A DNA stretch of 55,689 nt, filler included, from Jimgerdemannia flammicorona (lineage: Eukaryota): NCBI GenBank assembly GCA_003990765.1. It is 3 parts of 3 records of this genome, joined end to end, with 100 filler letters (N's around TTAATTAATTAA, not from the genome) between each part and the next. Parts side by side here need not be neighbours in the genome. Positions count along the whole stretch, not along the records: positions 18,601 to 37,098 come from RBNJ01002198.1; 2 more parts are not named here. One strand, written 5' to 3'. The position numbers and the translations under genes are program-made. A model generated the notes under the pieces. The model was not told the DNA's origin, ran no database searches, and saw only the letters and a program-made list of their open reading frames with translations. Of the stretch, positions 1,195 to 41,570 are shown one piece after another; the first letter of the stretch is position 1, and the number at the start of each line of letters is the position of its first letter.

Positions 1195-1288
1195 TGTAAG
1201 CACACAACCTCCAAGCCACTGAAATTACACATCACCCTCTGAACAAGCCACTGAAATCACACACTTTTTTTTTTTTTTTTTTTTTTTT

Positions 1289-10280: not shown

Positions 10281-10331
<51 letters not shown>

Positions 10332-10539
10332 AAATCTAGAAATCACCTGCTTGATCATGAAGCTGAGTCAAACCGAAGTCACAGCATACAAAGCTGAGTC
10401 AATATGAGGTCACAGAATACAAGATTTACACAAACAGAATCTTACCAATTAGGACCAAATGCATATATACCGAGTACCGAGATACGTTGAATCAGAGAAC
10501 CAAAACAAACAAACAACCACAACTTCTAAACACACAAAC

Positions 10540-11637
10540 ATGATCACCAAGATCTACAACTGTATCCATGCTGACATTTGGAATGCCATTGTCAACCGAG
10601 CCACACCCCCTCTGCCCCTCATGAATATCCATAGCCTGGCACCCCTCTACTTCATGGAAGCCTGATGGAATGCCCTGAACATGCTTAGTGAGGCCCACTG
10701 AATCAGACAAATCTCAAGCTACTACCAGATCAGCCGCCTCCTGGAAGACATGATCGAACACTACTACAATACAGACATTACCCAGATATCTCAATACCAG
10801 AAGCTCATCATCTGCAAACATTGAGAACTCTTCTATAAGTATAGCACCATTATTTCCCACCTCCGAGTTACTACCAGTGAAATGGTTGCTACTCTGTCCT
10901 ATGGCCAAATCAATGACATGATACAAGAACTCAACCAGAAGTACCTTGAGTATATCAAAACCACAGATAGAACCTTCCCACACCCCAATAATCATATCCT
11001 ATAAATGCCTCAAGTTGGATACACCATGAAGGACATCTATGATATAATCCACTTCGATGAAGACGAAGCAGAAGACAATGATCTCTCTGATGCCAACATG
11101 ACCTCTAGTCAAGGATCTCTGCCAACCCTGATCACTCTGCCAACCTTGCCAATGAACTTACAACAGTTCATAACTACATACAAGACTTATTGGGACAATG
11201 ACCACTGGCACGAATACCAACCTGCATTCACCCCCAATTACTTCAACTACAACGAAGAGACCAGAGAACACAACCTGTACCTTCAGACAACTCTTGAGAT
11301 CAAACCAACCACTCCACCACCCGAGTACGAGTGACATGAACCACAGCTGCCAGTATACTATAACCCCACAACTCACAGTGCCGTAACCTATAGAAGGTAC
11401 ACAGACAGCAAATCCAATGAAAGTAAAGACAATACACTCATCCTTCACCCACCAATACCTTATCTAGCATACAAGACAGACAATGCTATCCTGTGGGATA
11501 GAGACGAAGTTCCAATGTACTATTACCTCAGCAAACAAAGAGAAGTAATCTGCAAACCACTCTTCCTAGATGACTACTTCATCAGAGATGATGCAATCGA
11601 TGGTGATGTCATTGAGGACTACCCAGACAGCACCTAA
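10540..11637 (+). pseudogene. LTR-internal ORF of family B, decayed copy (366 codons incl. stop, unknown function)
   Basis: ATG 10540 to TAA 11637, same 1098-bp length and frame as 30003-31100; only point-mutation stops. Confidence 0.75.
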
Positions 11638-12318
11638 ACCCATAAATAGCCTAGCAGTCATAGTATAGTTAGATTAGCCTTGTATGACATGACTGTGAAC
11701 TAACTCAGCAGTCAGATGATCTCTTGATATATCAGATCACACTTGTACTATGTGACTATATTCCGACTCAGCAAAGTACTTAGTGCTACATCCATATTTA
11801 GCATAGTCCAGATAGCCCCTTACTAGTATAAATACCCCCTCCCCCAGACCTCAGAATCTCAGACTCAAACACACAAGAACATTCCTGAATACTTCTCCAC
11901 AATATCCCTTCATACAAATACTCCTAGTATAGCAATATCATGAATAGCAAATAAACCTATTCCATAACCCACAAACTACTCTTAAGTAAATCCACCCCCT
12001 GTTAGGTCCCACTCCTAACCCCATCACGAAATTTCCTAATTGGGTATTGTCTGCAGTGATACACCAATTCAACTAAGCTGGTCTTAGTTTCTTGAACTTC
12101 CTGAAATACAGAAAATCCTGAACATCTAGAACTAGTCTGAAAAAGGACTTTGGTTGAGATATCAACCCAATCTTGAAATCAATAAGCGTAGAGGACATAC
12201 TCCATATGAAATTGATCTTGACTATAAGAAAATGGTCTTCCAGAATATCCTGAACCTCCAGAAAACCCTTCCAGAACTATGTAACGATTACCCTAAAAAG
12301 CAACCCTCTTACATTATC

Positions 12319-18600: not shown

Positions 18601-18670
18601 TTTTTTTTATAGTCCCTTGGACTCCATCTTTATTACCAATCTATGAATAAGTATACAATAACACCACTCT

Positions 18671-21600: not shown

Positions 21601-22327
21601 GCCCATCACCACTTCCCCCAAAACACCTCTGTCCCAAAAGGCCCCAGTGGTCTGATCATGGACACCATTCTACCTCTAGCACCTTCCAAATGTCGTGGCC
21701 CCAGCAGTCGGCTGTTAGAATCCAGTCAATCCTTGTCCCCAGACCTCCAGCCCAATGCGTATATACCCTCCTGTCCCCCCAGTATTCCCTACCAGCATCC
21801 ACCAGCGCTCCTAGCCTTTCGACCTCCTCCCACATCGCCAGCCCCCCACTCCTGCTCTCAGCACCCCATCCTCCATCAGTTCTATCCAGCTGTACATTCC
21901 GAACCATATTGAAATTGCCTCCAAGTATATCCAACCCAGCTTCAGCAAGGATCCCACTCTCTAGGAGCCCTTTTACCCAATCCACACACTCCCCCCGTAT
22001 AGCAGGGCAGTAACAGGAGCCAACTGTAACTGGCTCCCAACCTGCATGAATCCACTCACCCCAGACCAGTCTCTCCCCCCAGCTCCTCACATTCTGTATC
22101 TCCCCTCTACCTTTCTGAACCAGAATTCTGACCTTACTATTCCAAATCGCCGTGCCACCCCATTCCTTAGTCCATTCCATCCTATCAGAATCATCCTCAC
22201 ACCTGACATCCTGCAAGAGGAAGAGATTGGCCTCCAATTCCTTCAACCAAGTAAAAATGTTCCTGCATCTAACTGCACCCCTTAGCCCATTCATGTTCAA
22301 AGAAAAAAGGTTAGTTGTACTGTTCAT
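18671..22327 (-). pseudogene. LINE ORF2 (APE + RT), 1219 codons in one frame with premature stops
   Basis: FSLNMNGLR, LLQDVR, GGNFN, TRIDWI; FLDQEKAYDRV, GVPQGDPLSP, AFADD, YLGI; CEEC..TPEH. Confidence 0.93.
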
Positions 22328-22360
22328 AATGAAATATAGTTTGTTTGCAATCAATCCCTA

Positions 22361-24388
22361 CTATTCCATGCCCATCTCCTCCTGTGTCATGTTCAGATTG
22401 TGTTCAGCCATCACCTCCACCTCTTCAGCCCTCTGAGCCTCCAGTCCAGCCAACAGCTCATTCATCTCCTCATCAGCCTTCTCCTCAAACTCCTCTCTGT
22501 ACTCGATGCAAGCCTCCTGCCAAAGCTGCAACCCATGACGCCTGTTCCAGCAGTACTCAGCCTTCTCCCCAGTGACAACCGCCAACTCTGCCTCCCTCTC
22601 CTTGTCTACCTCATACCCTTCCTCCTCCAGATACACCACGAGAATTTCCGCCTTCAGTGCTATTGCTACTCCTTCCTCCTGCAAAATTCTCACCCAGTAC
22701 TCATCACTCATCCCACACAAGTCCACCTCCCCCAGCTCTTCTGCTGCCAGGTTGTTCATCATCCGGTACATCCAAAGTAGGTTTCCCACCTCCTTCCCAC
22801 CAGGGGTCGCCGGCCTCCCTCCGTCCAGCATCGTGGTGTCAGCTCCAGCACTCGCATCCTCATCCTACACCTCTGGGACATCCACCAGTTCCTCCTCCCC
22901 AGCCACCACTATCTGGTCCCTATCCATTATCTTCGGAACACTGAATTTCACCTGCTGGGTCCCCAGCATCATCATGTCCTCCCCAGATTTGTTCCTGGAA
23001 GCCGGGCCGTGCCTGATAAGAGGGGAAGGGGTGGGGGAGTTCTCCCAGACTTCCTCCCAAACCTCCAAGATGCCATCTGCATATGGGTCATTAATCGTCA
23101 CCTCCTTTGCCTTCCCTGTCTTTGTCCCATCATTCCCACTCCTCTCACCAGTCCAGACACTTGCTCCGGCCCCTTCTGCACCCATCTTCATGCTTGCATC
23201 CTTCTGTGGTCCACCCCCCAGTTTAGCCAGCAGATCCTTCTGCCTTTTCTGCTCCTGAGCCCTTTCCCACTACACCTTGTCTACTTGAATCCTCTTCCCA
23301 TCCACTATCTCCAGGTGTGTTGACTTCTCGAAAGTCTTCCAGGCCTTGGCACACCATTCCACAGCCCCATCCAGCTCCTCCAGCACTTCCAATAAATCCT
23401 CCTCCTCTTCTTTACTTCCTTTCACCCATGTCACCTTACACAAGAATGCACCCCAAACCATCGCCGAAGGCCAGTCCCTCATCTTCCCAGTAGCCTCTTT
23501 TCCAGCCAGCTGAATTCTCACATCCACGTCCCCAGTCCTGAGTGTGGTCCCTTCCCAGACCCTGAATCCAATATCCACCACCTTGCCATACTCTGCCATG
23601 ACATCCTCCACTCTCTTCCTCGTCTCCATCACTGTCACCATGGGGACTCCTTTCACCAGCAGTTGGACCACCCTCGGATCCCATTTCAAACACCTTGCCA
23701 TCAGAACACACACCTCTCTAACCACCAGCCCAACCCTCAGTGCCTCCTCTAGCAGTTTGATCTCCTCAAAACCCACCTCCACCCCCTCCAGTCCCTTCAG
23801 GAACTTCACCGAAGCCGCTCCAGCCACCTGCTTAGTGATGAGCCCCAACACCATTTTCACCATCACTACTAAGCCCCGGAAACACAGTGTAACTGTGAAC
23901 ACTGAGATCGACTTCTTGAGTAACAGAGCCACCACCAGTCCCGTTACACCATCCGCCAGGTCCCCGGACCTCATGCCCTTCCTACTATTCAGCTCACCAT
24001 CAGCAGTCCCATCTAGATTTTTTTCCAGATCACCCATCACACCCCCATCAGTAGTCCTTGCCCCAGCCGCTACCCCCCCAGCTCCACCCCTATGGCCCTC
24101 CAGAGAGGTACCCCCAAGAGGTTGCTGCCTGGTAGCCTTCACTGGTACCTTCCCCCCTTGCAGCCAGCTCTCCAATCCAGCCCCTTGCCGACCCCCCTTC
24201 ACCTTCTCCACAAAGCTCACCCTGCCAGACCCTTGACCTCCAGCTCCACTCCCTCCTTCACCATGGCCTCCCACCAGCAGGCCCCTCATACTTCCCCCCA
24301 AGCCGGGGCCTCTCCCCACTTGCTGCCATTTAAATGCTCCAGGGCCACCCTGCCCAGTACGCATCTCCGGATGCTTGTTGGTCACCAT
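22361..24388 (-). pseudogene. LINE ORF1, 676 codons in one frame with premature stops
   Basis: ORFs 23270-24388, 22865-23191 and 22361-22831 in frame; homologous to 12809-14837. Confidence 0.85.
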
Positions 24389-24468
24389 AATACTAGTAGC
24401 TTTTCTCCAGAAACTGTGTCAAAAGTGTTGCCAAAGATTGTGTAACCTGAATGTTACCGGAGAAAGGT

Positions 24469-25100
24469 GTCCCACCTATGTCATTACCTCCTTCTCTACA
24501 AATCTAATCTCCACTGTCTCCATCAATGGAATAAACTTCATGAACTCCACTCTAGCCACTTCATCCTCCACTAGTCTCAGAACCTTCTTAGCCAACATTG
24601 CCAATCCTAGGAAATTTACCAAAACTACCCATGTTGATACCAACTTGTAAAAGAAGAGCTGCACCACTAGCTCACCTATCCCAGCTGCCAGAGTCACCTT
24701 CTTTTTTATCCTGAAGACATCAGCAGTTACTTCACCAGTTACAGCTGTGCCACCAGTAGTCCTCTCCCTAGCCACCAGCTTAGCCCCAGAAGAACCAGTC
24801 CCCAACATCACACCACCAGACCCCTGTCCCCTGCTGGACATCTGACCTGTCACCTGACCCATCACCTGACCCCTCTCTCTGTCAATACTATGCCCCCTCT
24901 GCCCCACCCCCAAAGGCCTGACTATAGCCCTCTTATTCCCCACCACAGTATGTCAGGCCTTGATTCCACTAGACCTCCCCTGACCACCAGTCCCTCTAGT
25001 AGCCACACCAGCTCCTACAGTAGCTGCAAAGTTCTTGGGAAGACTCAGACCAGGCCTTCTCCTCTCCAGATACTTAGAGCTAGAGAAATCTTGACTAGTT
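24469..25100 (-). pseudogene. 5' fragment of ORF1 from a third, more divergent LINE into which copy 2 appears to have inserted
   Basis: LAAGIGELVVQLFFYKLVSTWVVLVNFLGL..VEFMKF..VEIRF aligns with LADGVTGLVVALLLKKSISVFTVTLCFRGL..VKF..VEVGF; upstream boundary approximate. Confidence 0.65.
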
Positions 25101-25329
25101 ATATCACAGTTTTTACTGAAACTTATTATGCCTTATAGATAGACTCTTGCTGTACAATATACACCAGTGTGTTTAAAATAAAAACTTGAAAACATATTAT
25201 CTTTCACTGAAAGATATCTGTGTGGCTTAGCTCACTCTGGGTGGTTTGAGCAAAAGAAGTCTGGTATATAGGTCTCTTTTGCCCTGTAAATGGTGGGAAT
25301 AGTAGTTACTAATATAGAGAAATATTATC

Positions 25330-25752
25330 TTAAGGTGAGGTAGTCAGCATATTTCCTTAGCAGAAAGAGTGATGGTAATGAATGTGTATTGGCTACCAAA
25401 GCTGTGGTATGTGGGGTATCATCTGGACTTCCTGGTGTGAGTGGTCAGGTAACTTCTGAAGATAGCAAGATTATAGATTTGGGCCAGGCAGTGAAGTTAC
25501 ATAGGCTGGGAGATTCTGACTCTATCTGTTGATAGAGATGAACTAGGTTTGGTAGACTTTACCAAGCACCTTTATTGCCTGAGAGTATGGTGGCTGAAGA
25601 GGACAAGCAAGTTGAGGGATCAGGAGTGAGTACCACTCATGCAGAGGGTGTGAGAAGTCTGGTATTCTCCTCATGGTGTAACTGGTGACCTGCTTGCAAT
25701 GGTGGCCTTGGATGGGAGTAAGAGGATATATTACAAAGGCTTTTGGTGGGCC
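25330..25752 (+). pseudogene. LINE ORF2 internal fragment (post-RT region)
   Basis: ISLAERVMVMNVYWLPKLWYVGYHLDF..LGLVDFTKHLYCLRVWWLKR..YYKGFWW matches the same region of both larger LINEs. Confidence 0.85.
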
Positions 25753-26360
25753 CTTTCTCCACTATCTTACTGGTCACAAGGTTTGGTAGGCAACCTTCTG
25801 AGTCTCCTTTCCCCTATTATTACCCCCTCAACCTTAGATTGGTTTGCTGTACCTATATGGGCATGGTGGGAGGAGGGTAATGGTGATGAGTTGCCCCTTT
25901 ATCAGTGTCAGATTGGTGTCTTCTCTACTTTTTCGTAGTTTCTAGTGCCTTCAGCTGTATCTGGAGTGCATTCATTTTGGTGTGGCACCTTCTTCCTTTT
26001 GCTGTCATCAATAAGGTGCAGCCTTGATGCATTATGGGTTACATAGAGAGTTGGCCGACCTTGGGCATCAAGTGTTCAGTGTAGGTTACCTGCAGGTCCT
26101 TGGTGGCTATAGTAGGGCCCTCTGGCTTTGGCAAGCTTCCCGGCAAGTGTGGTTCTGGTGTAGGTGACTGTTTTTCAGATATTGTCAGATGGGAGAGGAG
26201 ATGGCCATCACAGATAGGAGGATGGGTGATAATGGTGAACTAGTGGGGTGCCAGGCTGGGGGTGGTCATCAGGACTGGGGTGGACAATATTTCAGTGAGG
26301 CCTTTTGATTGGCTGGTGGGGAGTGGGGTGGTGCAGAGGCCAGCATCCTGGCTATACCCA

Positions 26361-26510
26361 ACTGGAACTGGGAGCTGATGCAGTAATGCAATCGAGGCCC
26401 ACAGGTTTGGGGAGTGGGGTCTTCCTTATTTGGTAGTACCTGACTGGAACTGGAAGCTGATATGGCAACATAATCGAGGCCCACAGGCTCAGAGAGTGGG
26501 AGTGGGGTCT
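26361..26510 (+). repeat. Imperfect ~60-bp direct repeat in unassigned degenerate DNA
   Basis: ACTGGAACTGG.AGCTGAT...AATCGAGGCCCACAGG...GGGAGTGGGGTCTT at ~26361 and ~26443. Confidence 0.6.
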
Positions 26511-26685
26511 TTTCAGGCCCTAGCCCATGTGCAAGTTCTTTACTTACCCACTTTGAATCCACTTTGCTCTCTGTTGGTTAGTTGGGGGGTTTTTTCTTTG
26601 CCTCAGGCTTTCTTTTGGAGTTCAGGGGGCTATTCTTTATTCAGTCCTGGTGCTGCTAGATCTGACATGTAGGTGTGCTCTTGTA

Positions 26686-27326
26686 TGTAAATGATGATCC
26701 AGCTCTAGTGAGCAGACAAGTCTAGTCTATATCATTGGGGTCAACATAGCTGGTGTTTGACAGGTATAGCTGTTCTTGTTTTGTGTATATCTATAGGAGT
26801 GGTATCTTGTAGCTCTTAAGTGCTGGCTTGTGGGAACTTCTGATAGAGGAGATTTTCTATTTCATACTCCTGCCACATTTGGAGGTATTCGGTAGTAATG
26901 GTGATCCTTGTTTCCATTTCACAGCAGTAGAGAATAAAGTAAAAAGATCTGCAGTACCTAGGTTGATACTAGGAGTCCTTCTTGAGTAGGTCCTCATGGC
27001 TCTTCTGATGTCTTAGAATATCCTTTCTTCAACTAAGGTGCCTTGGTGGTTCCTTGACCTTAAGGTTTGGCAAGCAGCAGGCATTTTGTTTATAGTAAGT
27101 CTTTGAGCTATTTTGGGATTAGTGGGTCTTGTTGATTGCTGTTACTGCAGTTCCTTGATCCTTCTTTTATATTCTTCAAGATACTTGTACTATGGTCACA
27201 ATGACTCACAGTTGGTCATTATTACTTATCTTGTATACTATATGATCTTCTTGTGCTCCAATCTGGTGGCTTATAAGGAAAGACTATCTCTTGTACTGAT
27301 GTCATCATTCTGAGGTCACTGTTACA
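26686..27326 (-). repeat. Probable 3' LTR of Gypsy element C
   Basis: On the minus strand a purine tract AGGAGGAAGA directly precedes TGTAAC at 27326; TTACA end at 26686; TATAAAA near 27170. No second copy in the window to confirm. Confidence 0.5.
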
Positions 27327-27599
27327 TCTTCCTCCTGAATAAGGATCTTCTTGAACATCCTTATTCATTGGTCCAATTCTGAAAAATTTGCTAATCCTAT
27401 AATCTCTGACAAGGGGTCAAAAAGTGGTATTTATAGGCTGGTATCTTCTCTATGTATTTTGGCATAATGGTGAAGGATCACTCTCTTCATATAGAGCAAG
27501 GGCCTGATTCTGATCTTGACTAATCAGTTGATGGTTTGAACTCCTCTGACTTCAAAAGTCTCATAGATGAGTAGTTGTTAGTGCTGTATCTCTTAGAGA

Positions 27600-29745
27600 A
27601 TGGTCCAGACAGATAGCCTGCTGGTCATGGGACATGCTGTTATAATTCGTGGACTAGAACCTTGTGGGCAGTTATCACATTTTGCTTCTCTTATATAGGT
27701 TCATAATACTTCTTGAGTCTGTTCCTATGTACTATGGTAGGCAGTATGGTCTCTGAGATTTTTCTAAGCTAGAAGGTGGTTCTCTTGATATCTTGTATAT
27801 AGAAGGGTCCTTTCCATTTGGGCTCCAGTTTTTGTGACCATGAGGCTTCTACTATATTTCAATATAGTAGAACATTTTCTCTGATTTGGATGGGTTCTAG
27901 GGTCTTGTAATTCTTTTCTGCATTTTTTCTTATCAGTGCTTGTAACTTGATAATGTAATCTTCAGCCTTCTTTCTGATTTGGTGTAGTCTCCAGATTTCT
28001 GCATCAACCCATCTCTAAGTTAGGTCTAGATTTGTGGCTAAGGTTCCATTGGAATCTTCTTCTCTAAAGAGCAATTCTCTTGGGGTAAAGTGTGTGTGCT
28101 CTGTAACTGTATATCTTATAGGACAGAGAGAGTAGTTGGGAGGTAGTTATCCCAATTCTCATATGTCTCTGAGATCTTCATCAGGATGTTCTTGAGGGTC
28201 TTATTGGTTCTCTCTGTCTGTCTATTTCCTTGAGGGTAGTATGTGGTAGTCTTGATATACTGAATCTTGTATTTCTGATATATTATTTTATAAAATCTAT
28301 TGATAAATTCAGTGCCACAGTCTGTTGTGATTTGCTTCAGTATCTTGTAGTAGCAGATGATTTCTTGGTGCAGGAAGTCAGCTATAGATAGGGCATTGGC
28401 TTCTTGTTATGCTCCTGCTTCTATCTATTTGGTAAAGAGGTCTACAATAACTATAATATAGCAGTTTCCTGATAGTATTACTGGTAGTAGCCCAATGATA
28501 TCTATTGCAATGTGGTGGAAGGGGATAGGCTCAATTTTTGATAACTCAGGTGCCTGGTCTTGCTGATCTTGTTTCTGTTTTTGGTACTTGTCACACCCTT
28601 TGACAAATTGGTATAGGTCTTCTTCCATTTTAGACCACTATATAGTTCTTCTTGCCTTGTTATATATATTGGTTCCTCTTAGGTATCTTTGCTTGTGTAC
28701 TTCCTTCATTACTTGATACTTTTTGTGTTTGAGTATTACTAGCTTTCCTCCTTTTCTGAGTATAGTATTGTCTAGTTCAAACTATTTCAAAGTCCAGTTG
28801 ATGATGGTGATTGTCCAGGGTTTGAGGTGGTTGGACATCTTCTCTGCTCAAGATAGCTAATTAATCCATAGTATAACTCCTTATTCATGTTGAATAGTCT
28901 TGATGGAGGTGTTTCAGGGTATCCTTGAGAGTGTATCAGCATTGGTATTGGTTCTTTCTGAGTAATACTTGACAGTATAGTTATACTCTTGCAGTCTGTA
29001 GATCCATTTGGCATATATTCCTTTGGGGTTCAGAGTGTGGAATAGCCAGGCAAGAGCAGAATGATCTGTTTGAATAGTGAAGTGTTTTCCAGCTAGGTAG
29101 TAGTGGAACTTGTCTACTGCCCAAACTACTGCTAAGCATTTGAGCTTACATGACTCATAGTTCTATTCTACTTCATAGGTACCTCAGCTTACATAGGAGA
29201 TGACATATTTATACCCATCTTTCTTCTGGGCTAGAACTGCTCTAAGTCCTATAGTACTTGTATCTGTCTGCAAGATGAATTCTAGGTTCCAATCTGATCT
29301 TCTGAGGATAGATGCTTGGGTCAACCTAATCTTGAGTTCATTGAAGATTTCTTGGCATTTCTTGGTCTATTTGAATTTGGTTTCCTTCTTCAGTAGTTTG
29401 TAGATAGGTGCTGCAATATTGGAGTATTCTTTGATAAATCTTCTATAGTAGCTGGTCAGTCCAAGGAAGGCATGGACTTCTGTGGTTGTTCTGGGTCTTG
29501 GGTAGGCTGCAATAGCCTCAATCTTAATGGGGTCTGTGTGGATTCTGGTCTGGTTGATAAGGTGTCCTAGGTAGGTGATTTCCTGGGCTGCAAACTTATA
29601 TTTCTTGGGCTTGATATAGAGGCCATACTTCTTGAGCTTCTTGAGGGCTAGCTGTATATTATTGATATGTTCCCATGTAGTGTTGCTAAAGATGATCACA
29701 TCATTAACATAGATAAAGAGCCATTTTCCAATCTTGTTGCTGAAG
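27600..29745 (-). pseudogene. pol: Gypsy element C pol 3' half (RT end, RNase H, integrase), related to element A, heavily decayed
   Basis: YVNDVIIFS, YIKPKKYKF, TYLGHLI, FLGLTSYYRRFI; RNase H; GCDKYQK zinc finger remnant, HIAIDIIG, IVIVDLFTK; KWKGPF near 27800. Cut at 29745 by a family B LTR; 3' boundary approximate. Confidence 0.88.
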
Positions 29746-31776
29746 TGTAAGTGCACAACCTCCAAGCCACCGAAATTACACGTCACCCTCTGAACAAATC
29801 TGGAAATTACCTGCTTGATCACGAAGCTGAGTAAAACCGAAGTCACAGCACACAAAGCTGAGTCAATACGAAGTCACAGAACACAAGAATTACATAAACG
29901 GAATCTTACCAATCAGGACCAAATGCATATATACCAAGTACTAAGACACGTCGAATCAGAGAACCAAAACAAACAACAACTATAACTTCCAAACACACAA
30001 ACATGACCACTGAGATCTATAACCATATCTACGCTGACATTTGGAATGCCATTGTCAACCAAGCCACACCCCCTCTGCCCCTCATGAATATCCATAGCCT
30101 GGCACCCCTCTACTTCGTGGAAGCCCGATGGAATGCTCTAAACATGCTTAGCGAGGTCCACTGAATCAGACAAATCTCAAGCTACTACCAGATCGGCCGC
30201 CTCCTGGAAGACATGCTCAAACACTACCATGATACAGACATTACCCAGATGTCTCAACACCAGAAGCTCATCACCTGCAAACATCGAGAACTCTTCTATG
30301 AGTACAGTACCATTATTCCCTGCCTCCGAGTTACTACCAGCGAAATGGTTGCTACTCTGTCCTATGGCCAAATCGATGACATGATACAAGAACTCAACCA
30401 CAAGTACCTCGAGTACATCGAAACCACAGACAGAACCTTCCCGCACCCCAATAATCAAATCCTGCAAATGCCTCAAGTTGGATATGCCATGAAGGACGTC
30501 TATGATATAATCTACTTCGATGAAGACAAAGCAGAAGACAATGATCTCTCTGACACTGACATGACCTCTAGCCAAGGATCTCTGCCAACCCTGATCACTC
30601 CACCAACCTTGCCAATGAACTTACAACAGTTTATAACTACATACGAGACTTATTGGGACAATGACCACTGGCACAAATACCAACCCGCATTCACCCCCGA
30701 TTACTTCAACTACAATGAAGAGACCAGAGAACACAACCTGTACCTTCAGACAACCCTTGAGATCGAACCAACCACTCCACCACCTGAGTATGAGTGATAT
30801 GAACCACAGCCACCAGCATACTATAACCCTGCAACTCACAGTGCTGTAACCTATAGAAGGTATGCAGATAGTGAATCCGATGAAAGTGAAGACAATACAC
30901 CCATCCTTCGCCCACCAACACCTTATCTAGCCTATGAGACAGACGATGCTATCCTGTGGGACAGAGATGAAGTCCCAATATATTACTACCTCAGCAAACA
31001 AGGAGAAGTAATCTGCGAACCACTCTTCCTAGATGACTACTTTATCAGAGATAATGTCATTGATGGTGATGTCATCAAAGACTACCCAGATAGTGCCTAA
31101 ACCCATAAATAGCCTAGCAGTCATAATATAGTTAGATTAGCCTTGTACGACGTGACTGTGAACTGACTCAGCAGTCAGACAATCTCTTGACATATCAGAT
31201 CACACTTGTACTATGTGACTGCATTCCGACTCAGCAAGGCACTTAGTGCTATATCCATATCTAGCATAGTCCAGATAGCCCCTCAGTAGTATAAATACCC
31301 CCTCTCCCAGATCTCAGAATCTCAGACTCGAATACACAAGAACATTCCTGAATACTTCCCCACAATACCCCTTCACACAAATACTCCTAGTATAGTAATA
31401 TCATGAATAGCAAATAAACCTATTCCATAACCCACAAACTACTCTTAAGTAAATCCGCTCCCTGTTAGATCCTACTCTTAACCCCATCACAAAATCTCCT
31501 AATTGGGTATTGTCTGCAGTGATACACCAATTCAACTAAGCTGGTCTTAGTTTCTTGAACTTCCTGAAATATGGAAAATCCTGAACATCCAGAACTAGTC
31601 CGGGAAAGAACTTTGGTTGAGACATCAGCCCAATCTTGAAATCAATAAGCATAGAGGACGTACTCCATACAAAATTGATCTTGACCATAAGAAAACGGTC
31701 TTCCAGAACATTCAGAATATCCAGAAAACCTTTCCAGAACTACGTAATAGTTACTCTAAAAAGCAACTCTCTTACA
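29746..31776 (+). repeat. 5' LTR of Gypsy family B (2031 bp)
   Basis: TGTAAG...CTTACA, TATAAATA 31290-31297, followed by PBS; colinear with the two other copies. Confidence 0.93.
30003..31100 (+). pseudogene. LTR-internal ORF of family B (365 aa ancestral, acidic/Pro/Tyr-rich C-half, unknown function)
   Basis: ATG 30003 in frame with ORF 30213-30797 and on to TAA 31100; two internal TGA, the second reading CGA in the third LTR copy. Confidence 0.8.
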
Positions 31777-31779
31777 ACT

Positions 31780-31790
31780 TGGTAGCAGCA
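31780..31790 (+). promoter_or_regulatory. Primer binding site, probably initiator tRNA-Met
   Basis: TGGTAGCAGC 3 nt after the LTR end; complementary to a tRNA ending GCUGCUACCA. Confidence 0.75.
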
Positions 31791-34700
31791 GTTTACAATC
31801 CAATTCCGCTTCAAGATGCTTCCTCACTCTGCTACAATCCCCTCTGCAAATTCCTACAAGTTGGTATAAAGCCCAACCTCTGAACTAGAATTTATCCGAA
31901 CCATCTGACAATCTGGAGAAAATTGAACCTGACATACAAGGACAATTTGACCTCCATACCTGCAACAAGTGGGATAAACTTCATTCAAAAAAAGAAGTAC
32001 TCCAGTTAAACCAGCAAATAGGCGAAACCCTATTCACCGAACTCCTTGCACTATACCCAGCAAGTCAAGATGAAGAAGGTCTTATTGAAGCCTTCTTTAC
32101 TCTTCTCAACAAGAGTTTTGTCAGCTCCACAAATCCAAGTGACCTAGGACAACCAGCAGCAGTCTTTCTAGCCTTAGTTCCTCACAAAGCCCAAGCCTCT
32201 ATAGCCAAGTGGCTCAACTCTACCGACTTTCACCACACCAGGACCAAGACTGCCTTATACTACCAATTCCAGAACAGCAAGGCCCGCCATATTCTTAAAG
32301 AAGAAGTAAGAGAAACTCTTCATCAACTACCTGACCCTGAACCTGAAGCAGGCCCTGCTACAGCCCTACCTGAATCTGAAACCAATACCAAACCTGAACT
32401 TGACCTTGAATTAAGTCCATCTGAAATCAGATATATAACTGATTCTGTCTACTTCGACGCCGAGTAAACCCAATTACATGGGGACCAAACTGAAGAAGAG
32501 GAGGAGTATCTCACCAAATTCGATCCCGAATATACTACTAAAGGAGATGCACTTCCATCAGGACAGAATATACCTACACAGTAACAAATAGCTATCTATC
32601 AAGCCCTCACTCCAGATCCACAACTACTACTCCAGCAACTTACACAGACCTAAAGAACCCCATCACACTCTGCACTAGTACCTCAAGTAGTACCTGTAAC
32701 ACCACTACCAGTGGTCCAACCACCTCCAGCAATCAACATGGTGAACCAACAGATTCTTGATCTCACAGCCCAAGTAGCTATAATGGTAGCAACCATTACT
32801 GCCTTAGCTGAACAGACCCGACCTACCAAAAATCTGAGCCTACCTACCTTCAATAGTACTGCACAAGAAGTGCAAAGCTTCATTAGTGTAGTTGACACCA
32901 ACTTCGAAGCCAATCAATGAACTAATGAGTGAGTTGCTGACTGTATTCTGACAAACAATCAAGATCACACTCTGGAACAACTCTTTGCTACAACTACAGC
33001 CTATGTCCACCGAGTTGTTACATTCTTCCGAGGACCTGCCGAAGAATGGTGGTGAACCCTTCCTGAAAAACCCCTCACATGGGATACCCGACCTGCAGTA
33101 GTTGCCCAGAATGCAGCAAACAATGCCCCAGGATATGGAGCCCATCCTGCAGCCCCTGGACTCAAACAACTCATGATTGCTCAATACCGCAGTGAAACCA
33201 TGATTGCTGAATCTCGAGTAAAACTCCGCAACCTCAAATTTGATATACATGGCAAAGAAGAATTCGAAATCTTCTGTACAAAACTCGAGTCACTCCTGAA
33301 CACTGTTGGCCTAGGATATATTGCCAATGATGAAGTACGAAATGGTACAAGAGCAGACCACTTATTTGATGCCCTGCCTGAATGGCTTACTAGAAAAATC
33401 CGAGAACAAGGCCACCCAGTTGGTTGTGATCACCAACAATGGTGCCTGGCAAGAATCAAGACTATGGTCAAGTGAATCCTAACAGCTGGACCAATTCTGC
33501 CTCGAAGACAATTTAACAATAAGGAAAGGACTTGGACCAAGAAAGAAGAACCCAAGCATGAAGCATCCTGAGCTCCCTCCACATCCACCTCTTGGACACT
33601 CAGAAATCATGAACCCACCCAGCCAAGTACCTTCAAGAAACTTACTGAAGGTGAAAGGAACGAACTTCGAAGAAGCAGAGCATGCTTCTATTGCCAAAAG
33701 ACAGGACACATGGCCAGTGCCTGCCCTAACCGAAAACCCCGAACAGCAACCCGAGCAACTGTCACCACTCTGTACCACCTCAACAACCTGACTACAAGAA
33801 CACTAGACTTTGTCAAGTTAAGACAAACTGCTAAGGCCCCAACCAAAGGAAGTCAAAAAGCAGCCGGATATGACCTGTATACAGCCGAAGAAGCTACAGT
33901 TTCTAACTGAGAAGTCAAACAAGTCTACACAGGAATCAGTATCCAAATCCCTGAAGGACATGTTGGAAGAATATGCTGTTGCAGCAGCCTAGTATTGAAA
34001 GGACTCTCAGTAGAAGGAGGAGTCATTGACGAGGATTACACAGGCGAAATCATTATCCTCATTTGAAACCACAGTTGGACACTCTTCAAGATCTCTATTG
34101 GCTTCTGCATTGCCCAGATCCTATTTGAAAAAATCATGTCAACTCTGATAGTCAAAGAAGTCCCTGAACTACTGCCCACCATCCAAGGATCCAAAGGATT
34201 TGGCTCATCAAACAAGGCCCCAGCCCAACCTACCATGAACAAAGAAGAATAATTCTACAAGAAGATCGAAGATGGATATGTGCCAAGTGGCTGATGCCCT
34301 CATGGTATTGGAATATACTCTTCCCGAATGATTGATGATTGCTTCTCTTATGTCAATGAACTGGCTTAAAGAAGAACCAACAGAAGGAAAGCTACTATAA
34401 CTGAAATCACTAGCATTGGATCAGACAAACTGCTCACCCTTAAGGCTTTTGTCAACGGAGCACCTGTCAAGATTATGATAGACAGTGGTACCTCAGGCAA
34501 CTTCATTAATGAAGAAACAGCCAACAGACTCAAGGTCTTCACCTCCCCAGTACAGCAAACTCAAGCAGTTGCTATAGCTGATGGAACCTCACATGTTATT
34601 AGCAAAGAAGTCCGCAATCTACCCTTCCGAATTGGCAACTACCGAGTACATGTTACCCTCCAAATCATACCACTTCCTGACAATGAAATTATCCTTGGGA

Positions 34701-35825
34701 CTCTATGGTTAAAACAAGAGAACCCCATGATCGATTGGATAAACCATTCTCTGATCATCAAGAAAGGACGCCACAACTTCAAACTACAAGGTGAAAAGGA
34801 CTCACTCAACTCTAGTGACCCTGGACCAAAGATCACCCACATCAATAAGCTACAACTCAAGAAATTGGCCAAGAAATGCCCTCTCTTCACTATCTCCATC
34901 CGACCATCCAAAGGAGAACCCAAGAACTCTGAGAAAGGTTTTTCCAAAGTTGACAGCCATGTCAGACCACTACTCTAGAAATTCTGAGACATATTTCCAA
35001 AGAAGCTCCCGAAAGGCCTACCTCCCAAACGAGCAGTAGACCATGCAATCAAGACTATCCCAGATGCCAAACCAGCCTTCAAGTCAATCTACCACATGTC
35101 TCCGAGAGAAATTGATGCACTCAAGAAAGAAATTGACGAACTCCTAGAACAAGGATTCATCAGACCCAGCACATCACCCTATGGTGTTCTAGTCCTCTTT
35201 ATTGTCAAGAAAGGAGGAGACCTACGAATGTGCATTGACTACCGCGATCTCAATGAACAGACCATCAAGAACTGTTGCCCACTACCAAGGATCGATGAAA
35301 TATTTGATAGACTTACCAATCCACAATTCATAAGCTCTTTTGACCTGTGAAATGGTTACTGGCAAATTGCCATGAAAGAAGAAGACATCTACAAGACAGC
35401 TTTCTGAACTTGCTATGGACACTTCGAGTTCCTGGTTATGCCCTTTGGCTTAATTAATGCTCCAGCAACCTTCCAGACACTGATGAATACCATTCTGCAT
35501 CCATACCTGGACAAATTCGTTGTTGTCTATATTGATGACATTCTAGTCTTCAGCAAAACCCTGAAGGAACATCTTGAACACCTTGAACTAGTACTACTGA
35601 AACTCCGAGAAGAAACTTTTGATATTGGAGAAAAAGTCCTACTAGATATCAGAGGATACCGAGTTGACAACCTCAAGCACAGACCATCTACTAAGCTGAA
35701 CAGCAAGTTCATTGGACCATTTGAAGTCATTGCACAAGTCTCTCCAACCTCCTACAAACTGGCATTACCAGATACCATTAAGATTTACCCAGTCTTTAAT
35801 GTTCAATGCCTCAAGCAATACAATG
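31781..35825 (+). pseudogene. gag-pol: gag-pol polyprotein remnant: long N-terminal region, Gag with CCHC knuckle (33683-33724), dUTPase (~33800-34210), aspartic protease (~34440-34790), RT (~35000-35612), integrase GPF tail
   Basis: ORFs at 32711, 33173, 33710, 34475, 35096 and 35438 are all in one frame. [93 protein letters not shown]. Confidence 0.92.
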
Positions 35826-37098
35826 TGTAAGAGGGTTGCTTTTTAGGGTAACCGTTACGTAGTTCTGGAAGGGTTTTCTGGAAGTTCTGGAAGACTGTTT
35901 TCTTGTGGTCAAGATCAATTTCGTATGGAGTACGTCCTCTACGCTTATTGATTTCGAGATCGGGTTGACGTCTCAACCAAAGTCCTTTTTTGGACTAGTT
36001 CTGGATGTTCAGGATTTTCCGTATTTTCAGGAAGTTCAAGAAACTAAGACCAGCTTAGTTGAATTGGCGTATCGCTGCAGACAATACCCAATTAGGAAAT
36101 TTCGTGACGGGGTTAGGAGTGTGACCTAACAGGGAGCGGATTTACTTAAGAGTAGTTTGTGGGTTATGAAATAGGTTTATTCGCTATTCATGATATTGCT
36201 ATACTAGGAGTAGTTGTGTGAAGGGGTATTGTGGGGAAGTGCTCAGGAGTTGTGTTCGGATTGTTCAAGTGTTCAAGTCTTTAAGTCTGAGATTCTGAGG
36301 TCTGGGGGAGGGGGTATTTATACTAGTGAGGGGCTATCTGGACTAGGCTAGATATGGATGTAGCACTTAGTGCTTTGCTGAGTCGGAATGCAGTCACGTA
36401 GTACAATAGTGATCTGACATGTCAAGAGATCGTCTGACTGCTGAGTCAGTTCACAGTCACGTCGTACAAGGCTAATCTATCTATACTATGACTGCTAGAC
36501 TATTTATAGGTTTAGGCACTATCTGGGTAGTCTTCGATGACATCACCATCGATTGCATCATCTCTGATGAAGTAGTCGTCTATGAAGAGTGGTTCGCGGA
36601 TTACTTCTCCTTGTTCACTGAGGTAGTAATACATTGGAACTTCGTCACCGTCCCACAGGATAGCATCGTCTGTTTCGTATGCTGGGTAAGGTGTTGGTGG
36701 GCGAAGGATTGGTGTATTGTCTTCGCTTTCATCGGATTCGCTGTCTGCGTACCTTCTATAGGTTACGGCACTATGAGTCGCGGGGTTGTAGTAAGCTGGC
36801 GGTTGTAGTTCATGTCGCTCGTACTCAGGTAGTGGAGTTGTTGGTTCGATTTCGAGAGTTGTCTGAAGGTACAGGTTGTGTTCTCTGGTCTCTTCATTAT
36901 AGTTGAAGTAATCAGGGGTGAAGGCTGGTTGGTATTCGTGCCAACGGTCATTGTCCCAATAAGTCTCGTATGCAGTTATGAACTGTTGTAAGTTCATCGG
37001 CAAGGTTGGCGGCGTGATCAGGGTTGGCAGGGATCCTTGACTTGAGGTCATGTCGGCGTCGGAGGGATCATTGTCTTCTGCTTCGTCTTCATCGAAGT
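35826..37098 (-). mobile_element. Third family B LTR, inverted, truncated by contig end; best preserved copy
   Basis: Begins TGTAAGAGGGTTGC, the reverse complement of the LTR 3' end; colinear with ~30512-31776; not followed by a PBS on its own strand, so solo or 3' LTR. Confidence 0.92.
36512..37098 (-). CDS. LTR-internal ORF, uninterrupted 3' part (5' part beyond contig end)
   Basis: Open from the contig end through ORF 36512-37051 to the conserved EDYPDSA stop. Confidence 0.7.
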
Positions 37099-37198
37099 NN
37101 NNNNNNNNNNNNNNNNNNNNNNNNNNNNNNNNNNNNNNNNNNTTAATTAATTAANNNNNNNNNNNNNNNNNNNNNNNNNNNNNNNNNNNNNNNNNNNN
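37099..37198. other. Artificial contig linker
   Basis: Same 44N-TTAATTAATTAA-44N structure. Confidence 0.97.
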
Positions 37199-37777
37199 TT
37201 GGAGGAGGGGGGGGGGAGGGGGGAATGCTTGCCTGTGATTTTAATTGATGGGACCCGATGGCTGACTTGTATGCGTGACTATACGTAGGCCATCGAGCTT
37301 CTACTCACATATCCGGTCATGAACAGGTTCGGGTTCAGCAGTAGGGTGTACCTAATGATCAAGGGCAAGGGCAACAATTGGGCCAGCACGAAATTTCAAA
37401 TGGTATGTTTTCCTCGATATCCTAGTAATGAATCGCCTTGGTTTATATCCCTCTCCATCTTCCATGCCATGCATTAACCAATTCACACAAACATTAACAG
37501 CACCTCTCTCCCCTCCCCCTTCCCTCCTCCTACCAGCTCCCCCCGGTACGTGCTTCAACAATCCCTAATCCCTACCTCGGCTCCCTTCAACGCCGTGAAG
37601 TATTCCGCGGACCTCGCTTGCTCGACTTTCTTCCTTGCTGTCAACCTTACCGCGTTTTACAATTGCGCCACGAAGGGTGGTCCTTTGCTCGAATATCGAC
37701 GGTCCGCGTTTCTCTCCTATATTCTACATATTATCTGTATGCTGGGGCCGCGAATGTGATTGCGTTGGCAGTCTATA

Positions 37778-37850
37778 GTGGGGTTACTGAATACCTTGTG
37801 GTGTGGGTCGTGGGGTTACTGAATACCTTGTGGTTTGGGTCGTGGGGTTA
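37778..37850 (+). repeat. 32-bp tandem repeat, 2.3 units
   Basis: GTGGGGTTACTGAATACCTTGTGGT(G/T)TGGGTC at 37778 and 37810, partial at 37842. Confidence 0.85.
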
Positions 37851-39485
37851 ATCGTAATGATGTCGGATCATACTCGACCGTAAACGTTGCCTACCCTGAC
37901 TATCGTCACAGCCTACAAAATTGCCCTAAATAATTATAATAGTCATATTGTCACCTCACCCTGCTTCCTAAATTATGACTAGTGTGATGAGAATGTATTC
38001 ATTTGTGACAGTAATTCTTTGAGCGCATTGGCTTCCGCATCACCATGACACTCAACCCCTTATCTGTCAAGAAACCATCCGATTTTCCCATTTCTGACTA
38101 GTCCTTCTCACCGGCTCCATTCATTTACATTTTATATCATTTATTTCGGTCGGATTATTTTCCTTCTAACGATTAAACCAATCGTATAGAACCCCTAACC
38201 CATGTGCCATTGTCCATCCTATCGAACGTCGCCGAAACGCAGGAATCTTGGCTGCCTGGTAGTTTCCATTCCCATCCTGGTAAATGACTTCATAACGTAT
38301 ATAACGTACCGCGCGACGCAGCTCGCGTTTCACGTACAGAAAATAACACGTACACACACACACAAATGGAAATCGGACGTCACTATAAAGGCGCGTTGCC
38401 ATAACGTGATGTTACCATCTGTAGCGAAGTCTAGTGTTTAAAAAAAAAAAAAAAAAAAAAAAAAGATGTCTTTGCTATTCAAGTTCAAGCATCGCAAGGC
38501 AACCCGTCAAGGCTGAATTCAAATAGTTGAAATCCAGCATCTTTATAATCTTCCAAACGACCCTATTTATACAGCCTGTTTATTACTAATGTTTAGGGCC
38601 CACGTAAGGGCGCCGCGTACGCCTATTGGACGGCCTCGAGTAGAGTTGCGAGGGATTTCCAACGACCCTCGCGCCATGGAGAAAAGCAGACGCCGCTACC
38701 AAATAACGTAACACAACCAATGTTCCAGCATGTCCCTTGACTACAGTGTTATTGCTCTTCCATATCAATCCCAGGCGGCTTGAGCCAGTGGCCCGCGGGC
38801 CCGGACAGCATCTGCTTTGGAAGAGGGCCACGCTGTCAATAGCGCACACGGACCTCCCGCGCGCCAACGGAAATGACCGAGACCTTGGAACAGCAGGCTC
38901 GGTGTGGCATTAATTCAAACCGCCCTAACGAATAAATCGTTATTAAGGATTACGTGAAATTGGTGCGTGCCGTACACGAAAAATAAAAAATATTTATTGG
39001 TAAAGCCACAACAGGGGGTGAGAGAAATAAATAAATAAATAAATAAAATGGACTAGTCGCATAAACAATATCCAATAGTCTGAACAATTGTTAACAATAA
39101 TTTCCATTCTTTGTTTGAAAGAATACTTGAAATTTGATTTAATTACCATTTCACGGCCGACGAAGATTCTCGGCTTTGGAATATTCAATATTGCGCCGAG
39201 TGACGCGCAGGTTATTTTGCCATATAAATATCTAATGGGTGGACAACAAGACGCATCATTTGAAACAAAATTTAATTTTATTTGAGCATTGTAAATAATT
39301 GCACGGCCTTTGAGTTTTTCAGCTTTGGAATATTCAAAATATATAGCTATTTAATACAAATTGCACCGAAGCAAGGCATGCAGGTCTTTTTGACCAATTG
39401 AAATAATAACAGTAAAGCTCGGCAAACAGAGCCACCGACTGGACACGAGAGAAAGTTATACAGTCCCGAGTTTAGACCCGGACTA

Positions 39486-41215
39486 TCAAACTAAAACATA
39501 AAAAGTAAATTCGTCGAAATCCACGAGCGCTTGAGAGGCGAGGTCTGAGCTCGGGACTGGATCACTTTCTCTCGGGTCCGGTTGGTTCAGCTCTGTTTGC
39601 AGAGCTTTAAAGTCGAATGATGTTGATTGATTGGCTGATTCCGGTGTTGTCAAGAATACCGCCTGCACCGAATCGTCATTGATATAGTTGTCGCAAAAAG
39701 GAGTCGTTTCGGACGTTGGAAAGTATTCAAATTGTTGGACGGTGCAAAGATCGATGGCGTTGTTGGAGGGGAATAAATTTGAAACATCGAACTCGGGAGA
39801 TACCTACGGGGAGAAGGGAATGATGAGATTCAGTATTAGTTGCTGACAACCATCACATATTACTACGCTTTGAGTCGGAGGCCTACATACCATATCGCGA
39901 TTGTATTCTTCGCAACTCTCGTTTGACGAGGATAATCCTTTGGCGTTGGTGTTGCAAAAAGGAGTCGTTTTGGATGTTGGAAGGTGTTCCGCGGAGATAT
40001 CAAGTTGTTGGACGGTGCAAATATCGGTGACGTCGTTGGAGGCAAATAAATTTGAATCATCGAACTTGGGAGATACCTACGGGGAGAAGGAAACGATGAG
40101 ATTAGTATTAGTTGCTGACAACCATCACATATTACTACGCTTAGAGTCGGAGGCCTACATACCATATCGTGATCGTATTCTTCGTAATTCTCATTTGGCG
40201 AGGATAATCCTTCGGTGTTGGTGTTGCAAAAAGGAGTCGTTTCGGATGTTGGAAGATATTCCGCGGAGATATCAATTTGTTGGACGATGCAAAGATCGGT
40301 GGCATCGTAGGAGGCGAATAAATCTAAATCATCGAACTCGAAAGATACCTACGGGGAGAAGGAAACGATGAGATTCAGTATTAGTTGCTGACAACCATGA
40401 CATATTATTACGCTTTGAGTCGGAGGCCTACATACCATATCGTGATCGTATTCTTCGCAACTCTCATTTGGCGAGGATATAGAGCTCGGCGGTGATAATG
40501 GTGGCGAAGGGAGTCTTTGGTAAGTTTCGATGACCCGCGGGGAATCGCTGTGCATTTGAGCGTTGGGAGGCCCGCCCGTCTTGATCTTGTTCGAAGGGAT
40601 GCACGGGGAACCCGGGGAACCCTGGCACTTCCTCTTCCGCTCCCGGCACGATGAGCACGCACGTCCAGGCGAGTTCCTCTCGCCGATGAACTTGGTGGCA
40701 TGAACGCTACACTTGTGTTTCTTACGGCATTTGTCACATTTGAGTTTTGGAACGTTTGCTGATGGATGTAATTGTTGGCTGCCGATGGGGATGGGTGCCG
40801 GACGGATAGACTTGTAGGTTTGTTGATAGGCCTGATTTTGGCCCGCGGGGACAAGATCACGCTGCGACGCCTCGTCGAACGGTGCTTCGCGTTTCATGCC
40901 TTTGTTGAATATCTCGTACTTGGAAATGGTCTCGCTGTATTTGGCTGGCGACAGGTTGGAGGCGATCTTGTTCAGCCCGGGGAACATGGCGTGCACGTCG
41001 CCTTTGAGGTTCGTAATGTCGCCGCTGCCATTCAGATATGTAGGAAGGTTGACGGGTAGGTCCGACGAGCTATATATGGCGGTTTGGGCCTTGTCGGAAG
41101 GCTCATGGCGGCGGGAAAGCTTGACGCGTTTTACAGAGCGTTCGGTGGGGTTGAGGAATGGCAGGGTTGGGATGGGGAATTGTTGAAGGGTGAGGGTTGG
41201 GTTGGGGTAGGTCAT
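39486..41215 (-). CDS. Zn-cluster-like putative transcription factor, paralogue 1; exons 41215-40436, 40348-40163, 40076-39891, 39803-39486; 489 aa
   Basis: Three phase-0 GTATGT..ACTAAT..TAG introns of 87, 86 and 87 nt; spliced frame is open to the stop at 39486; motif CDKCRKKHKC-x17-CSSCRERKRKC at 40625-40738; acidic tail. Confidence 0.8.
39700..40480 (-). repeat. ~272-bp tandem repeat made of one intron plus one 186-nt exon, about three units
   Basis: Intron donors at 40435, 40162 and 39890; acceptors at 40349, 40077 and 39804. Confidence 0.9.
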
Positions 41216-41531: not shown

Positions 41532-41570
41532 ACCATATGCCACCATATGCCACCATATGCCACCATATGG
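41532..41570 (+). repeat. 10-bp tandem repeat (ACCATATGCC) x4
   Basis: Read directly from sequence. Confidence 0.9.

Follow-up and report, generated by a model that had tools for sequence, protein, structure and literature searches.

The stretch of DNA analysed here (the window; 55,689 nucleotides of Jimgerdemannia flammicorona, assembly GCA_003990765.1) contains three copies of a long terminal repeat (LTR) of about 2 kb, in which a single open reading frame (ORF) of 365 codons is wholly enclosed. This ORF is probably a real, selected coding gene encoded by the retrotransposon to which the LTR belongs. Its best explanation, which is also judged likely, is an accessory protein gene situated entirely inside the LTR of a dUTPase-bearing Ty3/Gypsy element and kept by purifying selection in the active lineage.

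LTR copies and the reading frame

The window is composed of three contigs (1-18500, 18601-37098 from RBNJ01002198.1, and 37199-55689), which are joined by two 100-base blocks (18501-18600 and 37099-37198), each consisting of 44 N, the all-frame stop linker TTAATTAATTAA and a further 44 N. Since the contigs were joined artificially, the third LTR copy is cut by a contig end, and adjacency across the joins is not real. Self-comparison of the window using blastn returned a threefold repeat of about 2 kb, the copies being pairwise 88.5-91% alike. By this comparison alone copy 2 extends over 29793-31776; its 5′ boundary was refined to 29746, because contigs from three public sequencing runs lose similarity just before 29745/29746, the first 52 bp recur at 1195-1246, and inverted ends of 6 bp (TGTAAG...CTTACA) result. 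The LTR, given as 2 kb in the first-pass annotation of this DNA, thereby measures 2031 bp (29746-31776). Copy 1 is a solo LTR that is split into two pieces by a 9-kb insertion, is flanked on both sides by a 5-bp target duplication (TTATC) and sits inside the reverse transcriptase (RT) of a different Gypsy element. Target duplication was assessed at this copy, the other ends of copies 2 and 3 being missing. The integrase end of the element to which copy 2 belongs is the insertion site of copy 3, which has the opposite orientation. The coordinates of all parts are compiled in Table 1.

The first-pass annotation, made from the sequence alone, had described one frame that takes up more than half of the LTR, is exactly 1098 bp long in two copies, is uninterrupted in the visible part of the third, acquires its stops by point changes such as CGA>TGA and would be retained whole by a solo LTR. 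All of these points were borne out. The frame amounts to 54% of the LTR, has the same length and phase in copies 1 and 2, and lies wholly within the LTR in 3/3 copies, including the solo LTR, where it is entire though decayed; in copy 3 the 194 visible codons and the stop are open. Copies 1 and 2 are not intact genes, because they contain five and two internal stops, respectively. The two stops in copy 2 compare with 17.1 expected from composition, and two stops or fewer were obtained in 0 of 20000 shuffled sequences, so that the ORF is not a chance frame; the remaining five frames of the region have 5-34 stops. Four stops in the frame of the ORF between the LTR start and the ATG show that it is not a continuation of pol either. 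Its strand skew (A>T, C>G) matches that of gag-pol.

Arginine stands in place of TGA in copy 3 at codon 265, and in P0003, a database relative described below, at codons 42, 54 and 95; the stops at these codons therefore arose as CGA>TGA. The stops at codons 54 and 265, which copies 1 and 2 have in common, were considered as a sign that an already broken gene had transposed. They were not accepted as such a sign, since both are CGA>TGA at CpG and these sites change so often (synonymous CpG sites differ between copy pairs in 12/16 to 18/24 cases) that parallel hits are expected.

Decay of the copies and selection on the frame

Within the ORF, copies 1 and 2 differ at 104 positions, 99 of them by a transition. 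Polarised C>T changes fall at CpA in 40 of 64 cases and are also concentrated at CpG, while G>A changes cluster at TpG and CpG. Indels are few: four were counted among the three window copies, all of them outside the ORF. Transition bias and sequence contexts together indicate decay by cytosine deamination or by a process resembling repeat-induced point mutation (RIP). The window copies are dead insertions that decay by C>T/G>A transitions.

Because of this transition bias, a crude ratio of non-synonymous to synonymous substitution rates (dN/dS) needs a baseline that reflects the same bias. Using the method of Nei and Gojobori (NG86), dN/dS in the true frame was 0.08 (copies 2-3), 0.19 (copies 1-3) and 0.27 (copies 1-2), as opposed to 0.46-0.82 in all nine comparisons of pseudo-frames from the non-coding part of the LTR; the two wrong frames of the ORF gave 0.54-1.74. 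Opportunities for C>T and G>A changes were furthermore divided into synonymous and non-synonymous ones, stratified by context (CpA/TpG, CpG, other) and evaluated by a Mantel-Haenszel test. Synonymous sites had changed more between copies 2 and 3 (odds ratio 4.4, p 6e-5), so that the result for this pair survives stratification by CpA and CpG. Of six comparisons in the wrong frames, five gave odds ratios of 0.27-0.81, the exception being frame 2 of copies 1-3 (1.59, p 0.36).

Private changes, in which one copy differs from the other two, were counted over the 194 shared codons. Copy 2 has 19 synonymous and 8 non-synonymous private changes on a non-coding baseline of 26:52 (Fisher p 0.0013), and copy 3 has 23 and 11 on a baseline of 26:63 (Fisher p 0.00017). 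With 30, 27 and 34 private changes for copies 1, 2 and 3 in the shared 582 nt, the designation of the third copy as the youngest found no support. These comparisons show purifying selection on the ORF in the lineage of elements that replicated. Two of the three outcomes named beforehand as refuting a gene, a dN/dS near 1 and frame-breaking indels, were thus not encountered: no indel breaks the frame among the window copies, and the two family indels inside the ORF, described below, restore the frame mutually.

Variation in the wider family and relatives of the protein

Part of the sequence words of the LTR is contained in 20 public runs (share at most 0.28), mostly soil metagenomes. Contigs of four of these runs were aligned to 29600-32300 at 80% likeness, which gave 4045, 446, 536 and 306 aligned contigs, 481, 51, 58 and 39 of them at least 99% alike. 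Such counts, with 4045 contigs from one run on 2.7 kb, indicate that the LTR family is high-copy where it occurs. In three DNA-type runs the contigs cover all 12 bins of the ORF. Among the 40 best-supported of 670 variant sites in the four runs, as chosen by the alignment tool, 16 fall in the ORF, namely 11 at third positions (all synonymous), 5 at first and 0 at second positions (binomial p 0.004). Two of the 12 indels listed (of 19 in total) lie in the ORF; both belong to one contig, in which 1 bp is lost and, at a distance of 13 nt, 1 bp is gained. No splice into the ORF was apparent, the listed contig joints being single-contig, low-depth events.

None of the public runs listed is an RNA-type run containing the LTR. 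In run X12, the only one guessed to be RNA, contig depth rose from 2-20 over most of the ORF to 670-1450 immediately downstream of the LTR TATA box (31329-31600); in the three DNA-type runs the same ratio of depths was about 1:2. As the type of run X12 is a guess, no conclusion was drawn from this contrast.

Two relatives of the protein were retrieved. P0002, an open frame of 247 aa, shows 66% identity over residues 115-364 with only two gaps, each of two residues; P0003 (128 aa) is 87% identical and begins with the same methionine. Searches of 1.84 billion representatives and, in a 5.8-billion-cluster set, of the length classes "near" and "shorter" gave no further relative. P0004 and P0005, tandem-repeat proteins that match weakly and over short stretches, were disregarded. 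In a neutral simulation run to 68% protein identity, 194 codons stayed open in 43-150 of 2000 runs (2-7.5%), depending on the transition bias. Pattern searches for the DNA of the relatives gave 0 confirmed hits in JGI metagenome contigs (593 + 92 hits), IMG/VR (374) and GTDB genomes (352). The dN/dS values given above are those of the window copies.

Predicted protein

The predicted protein is strongly acidic (pI 4.35; 60 Asp + Glu versus 21 Lys + Arg) and contains 29 Pro and 33 Tyr; its C-terminal half has a pI of 4.05. No membrane span was detected, the maximum 19-residue hydropathy being 0.86. The first-pass annotation had proposed a helical N-half and an acidic, Pro/Tyr-rich C-half. The composition agrees with the latter, and the helices appear, at residues 2-141, in a low-confidence model only (AlphaFold2, 5-row alignment, mean predicted local distance difference test score (pLDDT) 31.8), which continues mostly as coil. 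On this modelling basis an orphan protein with a helical N-terminal domain of about 140 aa is probable, and the acidic C-half is probably disordered. PPxY-type late-domain motifs were considered as a functional lead and rejected, as the PPEY and PPAY of copy 2 are LSEY and PLAY in P0002.

The statement that the protein contains no recognised domain held in all searches, and no match to a known host or transposon gene, the third outcome named beforehand as refuting, emerged from Pfam, the PDB or the 1.84 billion representatives. In Pfam, at E<=0.1, only a sub-threshold match to RAMP was obtained (15.7 bits versus a cut-off of 27); a profile search of PDB sequences gave nothing (best E 0.2). Comparison of folds with the Atlas model of P0002 reached a TM-score of 0.30 at best, and an Atlas feature search with P0003 stayed below the recognition bar. 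No likeness to the gag-pol of the same element was seen (blastp; hhalign probability 0.16%), and no paralogue of the ORF elsewhere in the window (tblastn). Homology to Sag, Nef, Tas or similar proteins was not found in Pfam or by the PDB profile search.

Host element and regulatory signals

Direct LTRs with TG...CA ends, the 5-bp target site duplication of copy 1 and the Gypsy domains of the interior identify the element as a Ty3/Gypsy (Metaviridae) LTR retrotransposon. A polypurine tract was not seen, as the window contains no 3′ LTR junction. Its gag-pol frame shows, in Pfam order, a zf-CCHC zinc knuckle, dUTPase, aspartyl protease, RVT_1 and SH3_Tf2-1 (integrase C-terminus), and the stops in the copy-2 element are point mutations. 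The dUTPase domain (about 33830-34210; Pfam E 2.3e-29) follows the zinc knuckle of gag and precedes the protease. Compared with named proteins, pol is best matched by plants and Chara (33-55% identity over part of the length). The element that bears the ORF is a dUTPase-bearing, chromovirus-like Ty3/Gypsy retrotransposon without env. Two further observations concern its interior: the dUTPase is a second acquired module besides the LTR gene, and at 35408-35830 RT runs straight into the integrase SH3 domain in one frame, an internal deletion having taken RNase H and the integrase core.

Table 1 Positions of LTR copies, reading frames and signals in the window
Feature	Position	Strand	Basis
LTR copy 2, 5′ LTR of truncated element	29746..31776	+	sequence, blastn, contig loose ends
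Solo LTR copy 1, left piece (70 bases), after target duplication TTATC (1190-1194)	1195..1264	+	alignment
Solo LTR copy 1, right piece, followed by TTATC (12314-12318)	10329..12313	+	alignment
LTR copy 3, 3′ two-thirds, truncated by contig end	35826..37098	-	alignment
LTR ORF copy 2, 365 codons + stop; TGA at codons 54 (30162-30164) and 265 (30795-30797)	30003..31100	+	sequence
LTR ORF copy 1, 365 codons; stops at codons 42, 54, 95, 155, 265	10540..11637	+	sequence
LTR ORF copy 3, last 194 codons + stop, uninterrupted	36512..37096	-	sequence
Tandem repeat of 31 bp, 2.2 copies, 5′ part of LTR; possible enhancer	29820..29886	+	Tandem Repeats Finder
TATATA motif, candidate ORF promoter	29928..29933	+	kept in copies 1 and 2
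Only canonical TATA box of LTR, TATAAATA, identical in 3/3 copies; presumed U3/R promoter	31290..31297	+	sequence
Only AATAAA of LTR, kept in 3/3 copies; presumed poly(A) signal in R	31413..31418	+	sequence
Primer-binding-site-like (TGG) TGGTAGCAGCAG, 3 nt past LTR end	31780..31791	+	sequence; no tRNA matched
Internal gag-pol frame, 1350 codons, 18 stops, no frameshift	31778..35827	+	Pfam, sequence

The ORF ends 190 bp before the TATA box TATAAATA, and the AATAAA follows further downstream at 31413. As both signals, each present only once in the LTR, are located downstream, the ORF most likely lies in U3, the unique 3′ region of the LTR. Its earlier placement upstream of the TATA box was confirmed in 3/3 copies; the U3-like position deduced from it depends on the TATA and AATAAA motifs only. 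From a U3 position it follows that the genomic RNA would contain the ORF only at its 3′ end, behind pol, and that the gene would have to be expressed through splicing to a subgenomic RNA or from a separate promoter. The TATATA at 29928 is situated about 70 bp upstream of the ATG of the ORF, with no ATG in between.

At the LTR start (29746-29800 and 1195-1264) the number of units of about 31 bp (...CTCTGAACAA GCCACTGAAATCACAC...) varies, copy 1 and many public contigs having one unit more than copy 2. Other public contigs are wholly unlike the LTR after TGAACAA; this divergence suggests LTR subfamilies with distinct 5′ ends.

Weighing of the explanations

Several findings speak against a selected gene in the LTR or reduce the weight of its support. 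Every full-length ORF copy seen in the window has stops, and the ORF is 9.5-11% diverged, which is no lower than the rest of the LTR (8.4-9%). The gag-pol frame, despite its 18 stops, is free of frameshifts as well, and the missing ORF indels among the window copies are therefore weak evidence alone. The stratified test was not significant for the two pairs with copy 1 (odds ratios 1.6, p 0.1, and 1.85, p 0.09), and the private changes of this solo LTR look neutral (10 synonymous and 20 non-synonymous on a non-coding baseline of 26:48; Fisher p 1). This branch pattern is as expected if copies 2 and 3 represent different active sublineages that keep the protein and copy 1 has mostly decayed in place. 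The variant list is the tool's own choice of 40/670 sites. Only two relatives are available, both fragments on contigs of about 1 kb, and as they entered the database as open frames from a gene caller, they are subject to ascertainment bias with regard to decay after insertion. Neither AlphaFold2 (pLDDT 31.8) nor the Atlas model of P0002 (pLDDT 0.39) yielded a fold. The U3 position, the promoter and the function are inferred from the sequence.

If no gene were present, the frame would be open owing to A/C-rich composition or to constraint on a cis-acting DNA or RNA signal in U3, and the copies would merely be young. The scarcity of T and G on the ORF strand, the small number of stops in the codon-aligned antisense frame (5/366) and the overall conservation of the non-coding LTR part, which about equals that of the ORF, would be in line with this. 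It can hardly be correct, however, given that none of the 20000 shuffles left so few stops, that constraint on a nucleic-acid signal gives no three-base periodicity with a synonymous excess in one frame only, that copies 9-11% diverged are not young, and that the gaps in the 66%-identical relative are all in frame. A passenger, that is a captured fragment of a host gene or a gene of another mobile element which is of no use to its carrier and whose codon pattern is inherited, is highly improbable too. Gene capture by LTR retrotransposons is documented in the accessible text of a review (PMC7264820), and the protein is without a link to gag-pol. A captured sequence is nevertheless difficult to reconcile with the lack of any host-like or transposon-like homologue among the 1.84 billion representatives, Pfam and PDB sequences, with a strand composition equal to that of gag-pol and with a relative still open at 66% identity; moreover, the synonymous excess is found in changes that occurred after the LTR copies had diverged (private changes of copies 2 and 3, family variants) and is thus not inherited.

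The gene may also be real and yet not a U3 gene. The genomic RNA would then start upstream, after the TATATA at 29928, and the ORF would lie in a very long repeat region (R) or 5′ leader, serving as first cistron in either the full-length RNA or a short, prematurely polyadenylated form. This motif, 70 bp before the ATG, is kept in copies 1 and 2 and is not followed by another ATG before that of the ORF, and since the ORF is followed by the LTR's only AATAAA, either promoter could give rise to a short mRNA that ends there. On the other side, the only canonical TATA box (31290), identical in 3/3 copies, is downstream of the ORF. Such a leader would also require an R of about 1.5 kb, readthrough of the poly(A) signal that the full-length RNA itself contains, and translation of gag behind an ORF of 365 codons, and is considered improbable. 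An accessory gene within the LTR, maintained by purifying selection, consequently remains the likely explanation of the ORF.

Proposed expression and function

For such an accessory gene, a separate short mRNA would be the most economical route of expression. It would start after the TATATA at 29928, for which the ATG of the ORF is the first ATG downstream, and end at the poly(A) signal of the LTR itself, so that any LTR, even a solo one, could serve as an expression unit. Provided that the gene is real, a transcription unit of its own inside the LTR is given an even chance. The protein is taken to act in trans as a factor that aids expression or replication of the family. That it is a regulator of the LTR of the acidic-activator type is a doubtful first guess, made from composition only.

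A more far-reaching scheme, considered unlikely as a whole, regards the LTR as a self-contained cassette of a promoter in the first 250 bp, the 365-codon gene and a poly(A) signal. Each insertion would plant two copies of a family-specific acidic regulator, either an LTR transactivator of the Tas/Tax kind or an antagonist of host silencing or of a RIP-type defence, and solo LTRs would keep expressing it. If this were true, the element would be a "complex" Ty3/Gypsy retrotransposon of a probably fungal host, whose LTRs supply thousands of gene copies that act in trans.

Other features of the window

The 9-kb insertion in solo LTR copy 1 (1265-10328) has a T-run at its left border and a long A-run at its right border, and forms a near-perfect palindrome, whose arms are 91.5% alike over 9039 bp and meet near 5776. 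The arms contain direct repeats of about 0.5-0.7 kb, 3.9 kb apart, and ORFs with weak similarity to RT. The insertion has the appearance of two units of an unusual retroelement joined head to head. Two LINE-like elements (long interspersed nuclear elements) with endonuclease/exonuclease/phosphatase and RT matches are located at 13145-18294 and 18892-24058; they are 68.7% alike, head to head and of strongly opposite GC skew, and since they are on different contigs, their juxtaposition is an artefact of joining. The Gypsy elements that host copies 1 and 2 are relatives, with 70% identity along 323 bp of RT/RNase H (12334-12656 versus 29218-29540, oppositely oriented), and the LTR family may prefer insertion into other Gypsy elements.

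Three diverged tandem paralogues of 250-360 codons are situated on the minus strand at 40349-41380, 42893-43978 and 45696-46457 and share the Cys-rich motif C-x2-C-x5-C-x17-C-x2-C-x6-C. One shows a sub-threshold match to the fungal Zn(2)-Cys(6) cluster (Zn_clus, E 0.032), and one has a long SPRSP/SPPSP repeat. These paralogues may be host genes. The Zn_clus match, the CpA bias of the C>T changes and the occurrence of dUTPase-bearing Gypsy elements in fungi point to a fungal host, probably from soil, whereas the plant and Chara proteins that best match pol and the dUTPase of bdelloid rotifer elements speak against it. An Rfam search of the window gave no match.

Significance and comparison with known systems

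Owing to its position in the LTR, the gene is doubled at each insertion and survives LTR-LTR recombination in solo LTRs, and it needs a route of expression other than the genomic RNA. If it is expressed, the host carries very many copies of an orphan acidic protein, which would offer a testable handle on self-regulation of retrotransposons or on the countering of genome defence. Annotation pipelines in which LTRs are assumed to be non-coding would miss or mask such genes.

Among retroviruses, the foamy-virus genes tas and bet and the lentiviral nef are accessory or regulatory genes that follow pol or env and overlap the 3′ LTR. They overlap U3 partly, whereas the LTR ORF lies wholly inside the LTR, and homology to them is absent. 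Tas is a transactivator with an acidic domain and has an internal promoter of its own; foamy-virus tas served as the model for the mechanism proposed here, in which the activator role is guessed from composition only. A further close parallel is sag of mouse mammary tumour virus (MMTV), a vertebrate retrovirus, where a complete coding frame for a membrane glycoprotein superantigen lies inside U3 and hence in both LTRs. The LTR ORF likewise has its entire protein frame inside the LTR (in U3, as inferred here). Unlike Sag, its protein is without a hydrophobic segment or a Pfam match, and it belongs to a Ty3/Gypsy element without env. Abstracts refer to the "LTR ORF" of MMTV by that name (e.g. 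PMC2118998).

Additional ORFs (aORFs) of LTR retrotransposons are, as far as the accessible portions of the sources extend, described for Grande (maize), RIRE2 (rice), Retand TRP28, Boty (Botrytis), bdelloid ORF3 and Cer1 CERV (C. elegans), and are characterised there as family-specific, lacking homologues outside the elements, kept in most copies and thought to serve transposition (PMC7264820, PMC11963269, PMC5408684, PMC10309623). The LTR ORF resembles them in being family-specific and without homologues outside the element: it is present in 3/3 window copies, is covered by contigs of the public runs, and no homologue was found outside. It differs from them in position. The aORFs are placed, in the parts of the review at hand, in internal sequence, either ahead of gag or in the stretch from pol to the 3′ LTR, and are often antisense (PMC7264820), whereas the LTR ORF is in sense and entirely in the LTR, outside the internal region by which aORFs are defined (Vicient & Casacuberta 2020). 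The phrases "in", "within" or "inside the LTR" do not occur in the aORF review (PMC7264820), and a search of the full-text literature, which does not cover subscription journals, for LTR-internal ORFs of retrotransposons returned only retroviral cases or unrelated papers.

With respect to the backbone, dUTPase-bearing Gypsy/chromovirus elements are reported from fungi in the accessible text of PMC2864245, namely PosPlaTy3 (Postia placenta), elements of Phanerochaete chrysosporium and Tmt1 (Tuber melanosporum), and elements of bdelloid rotifers carry a dUTPase as well, according to the corresponding portion of PMC5408684. The present element shares with the PosPlaTy3 type a Gypsy gag-pol backbone with an acquired dUTPase; for that type, the same text of PMC2864245 describes no LTR ORF and mentions an "add. 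ORF" in a figure legend without stating its position. Extra genes in LTR retrotransposons and U3 genes in a few retroviruses are thus both known, and the new feature proposed here is a selected stand-alone gene that lies wholly in a Ty3/Gypsy LTR.

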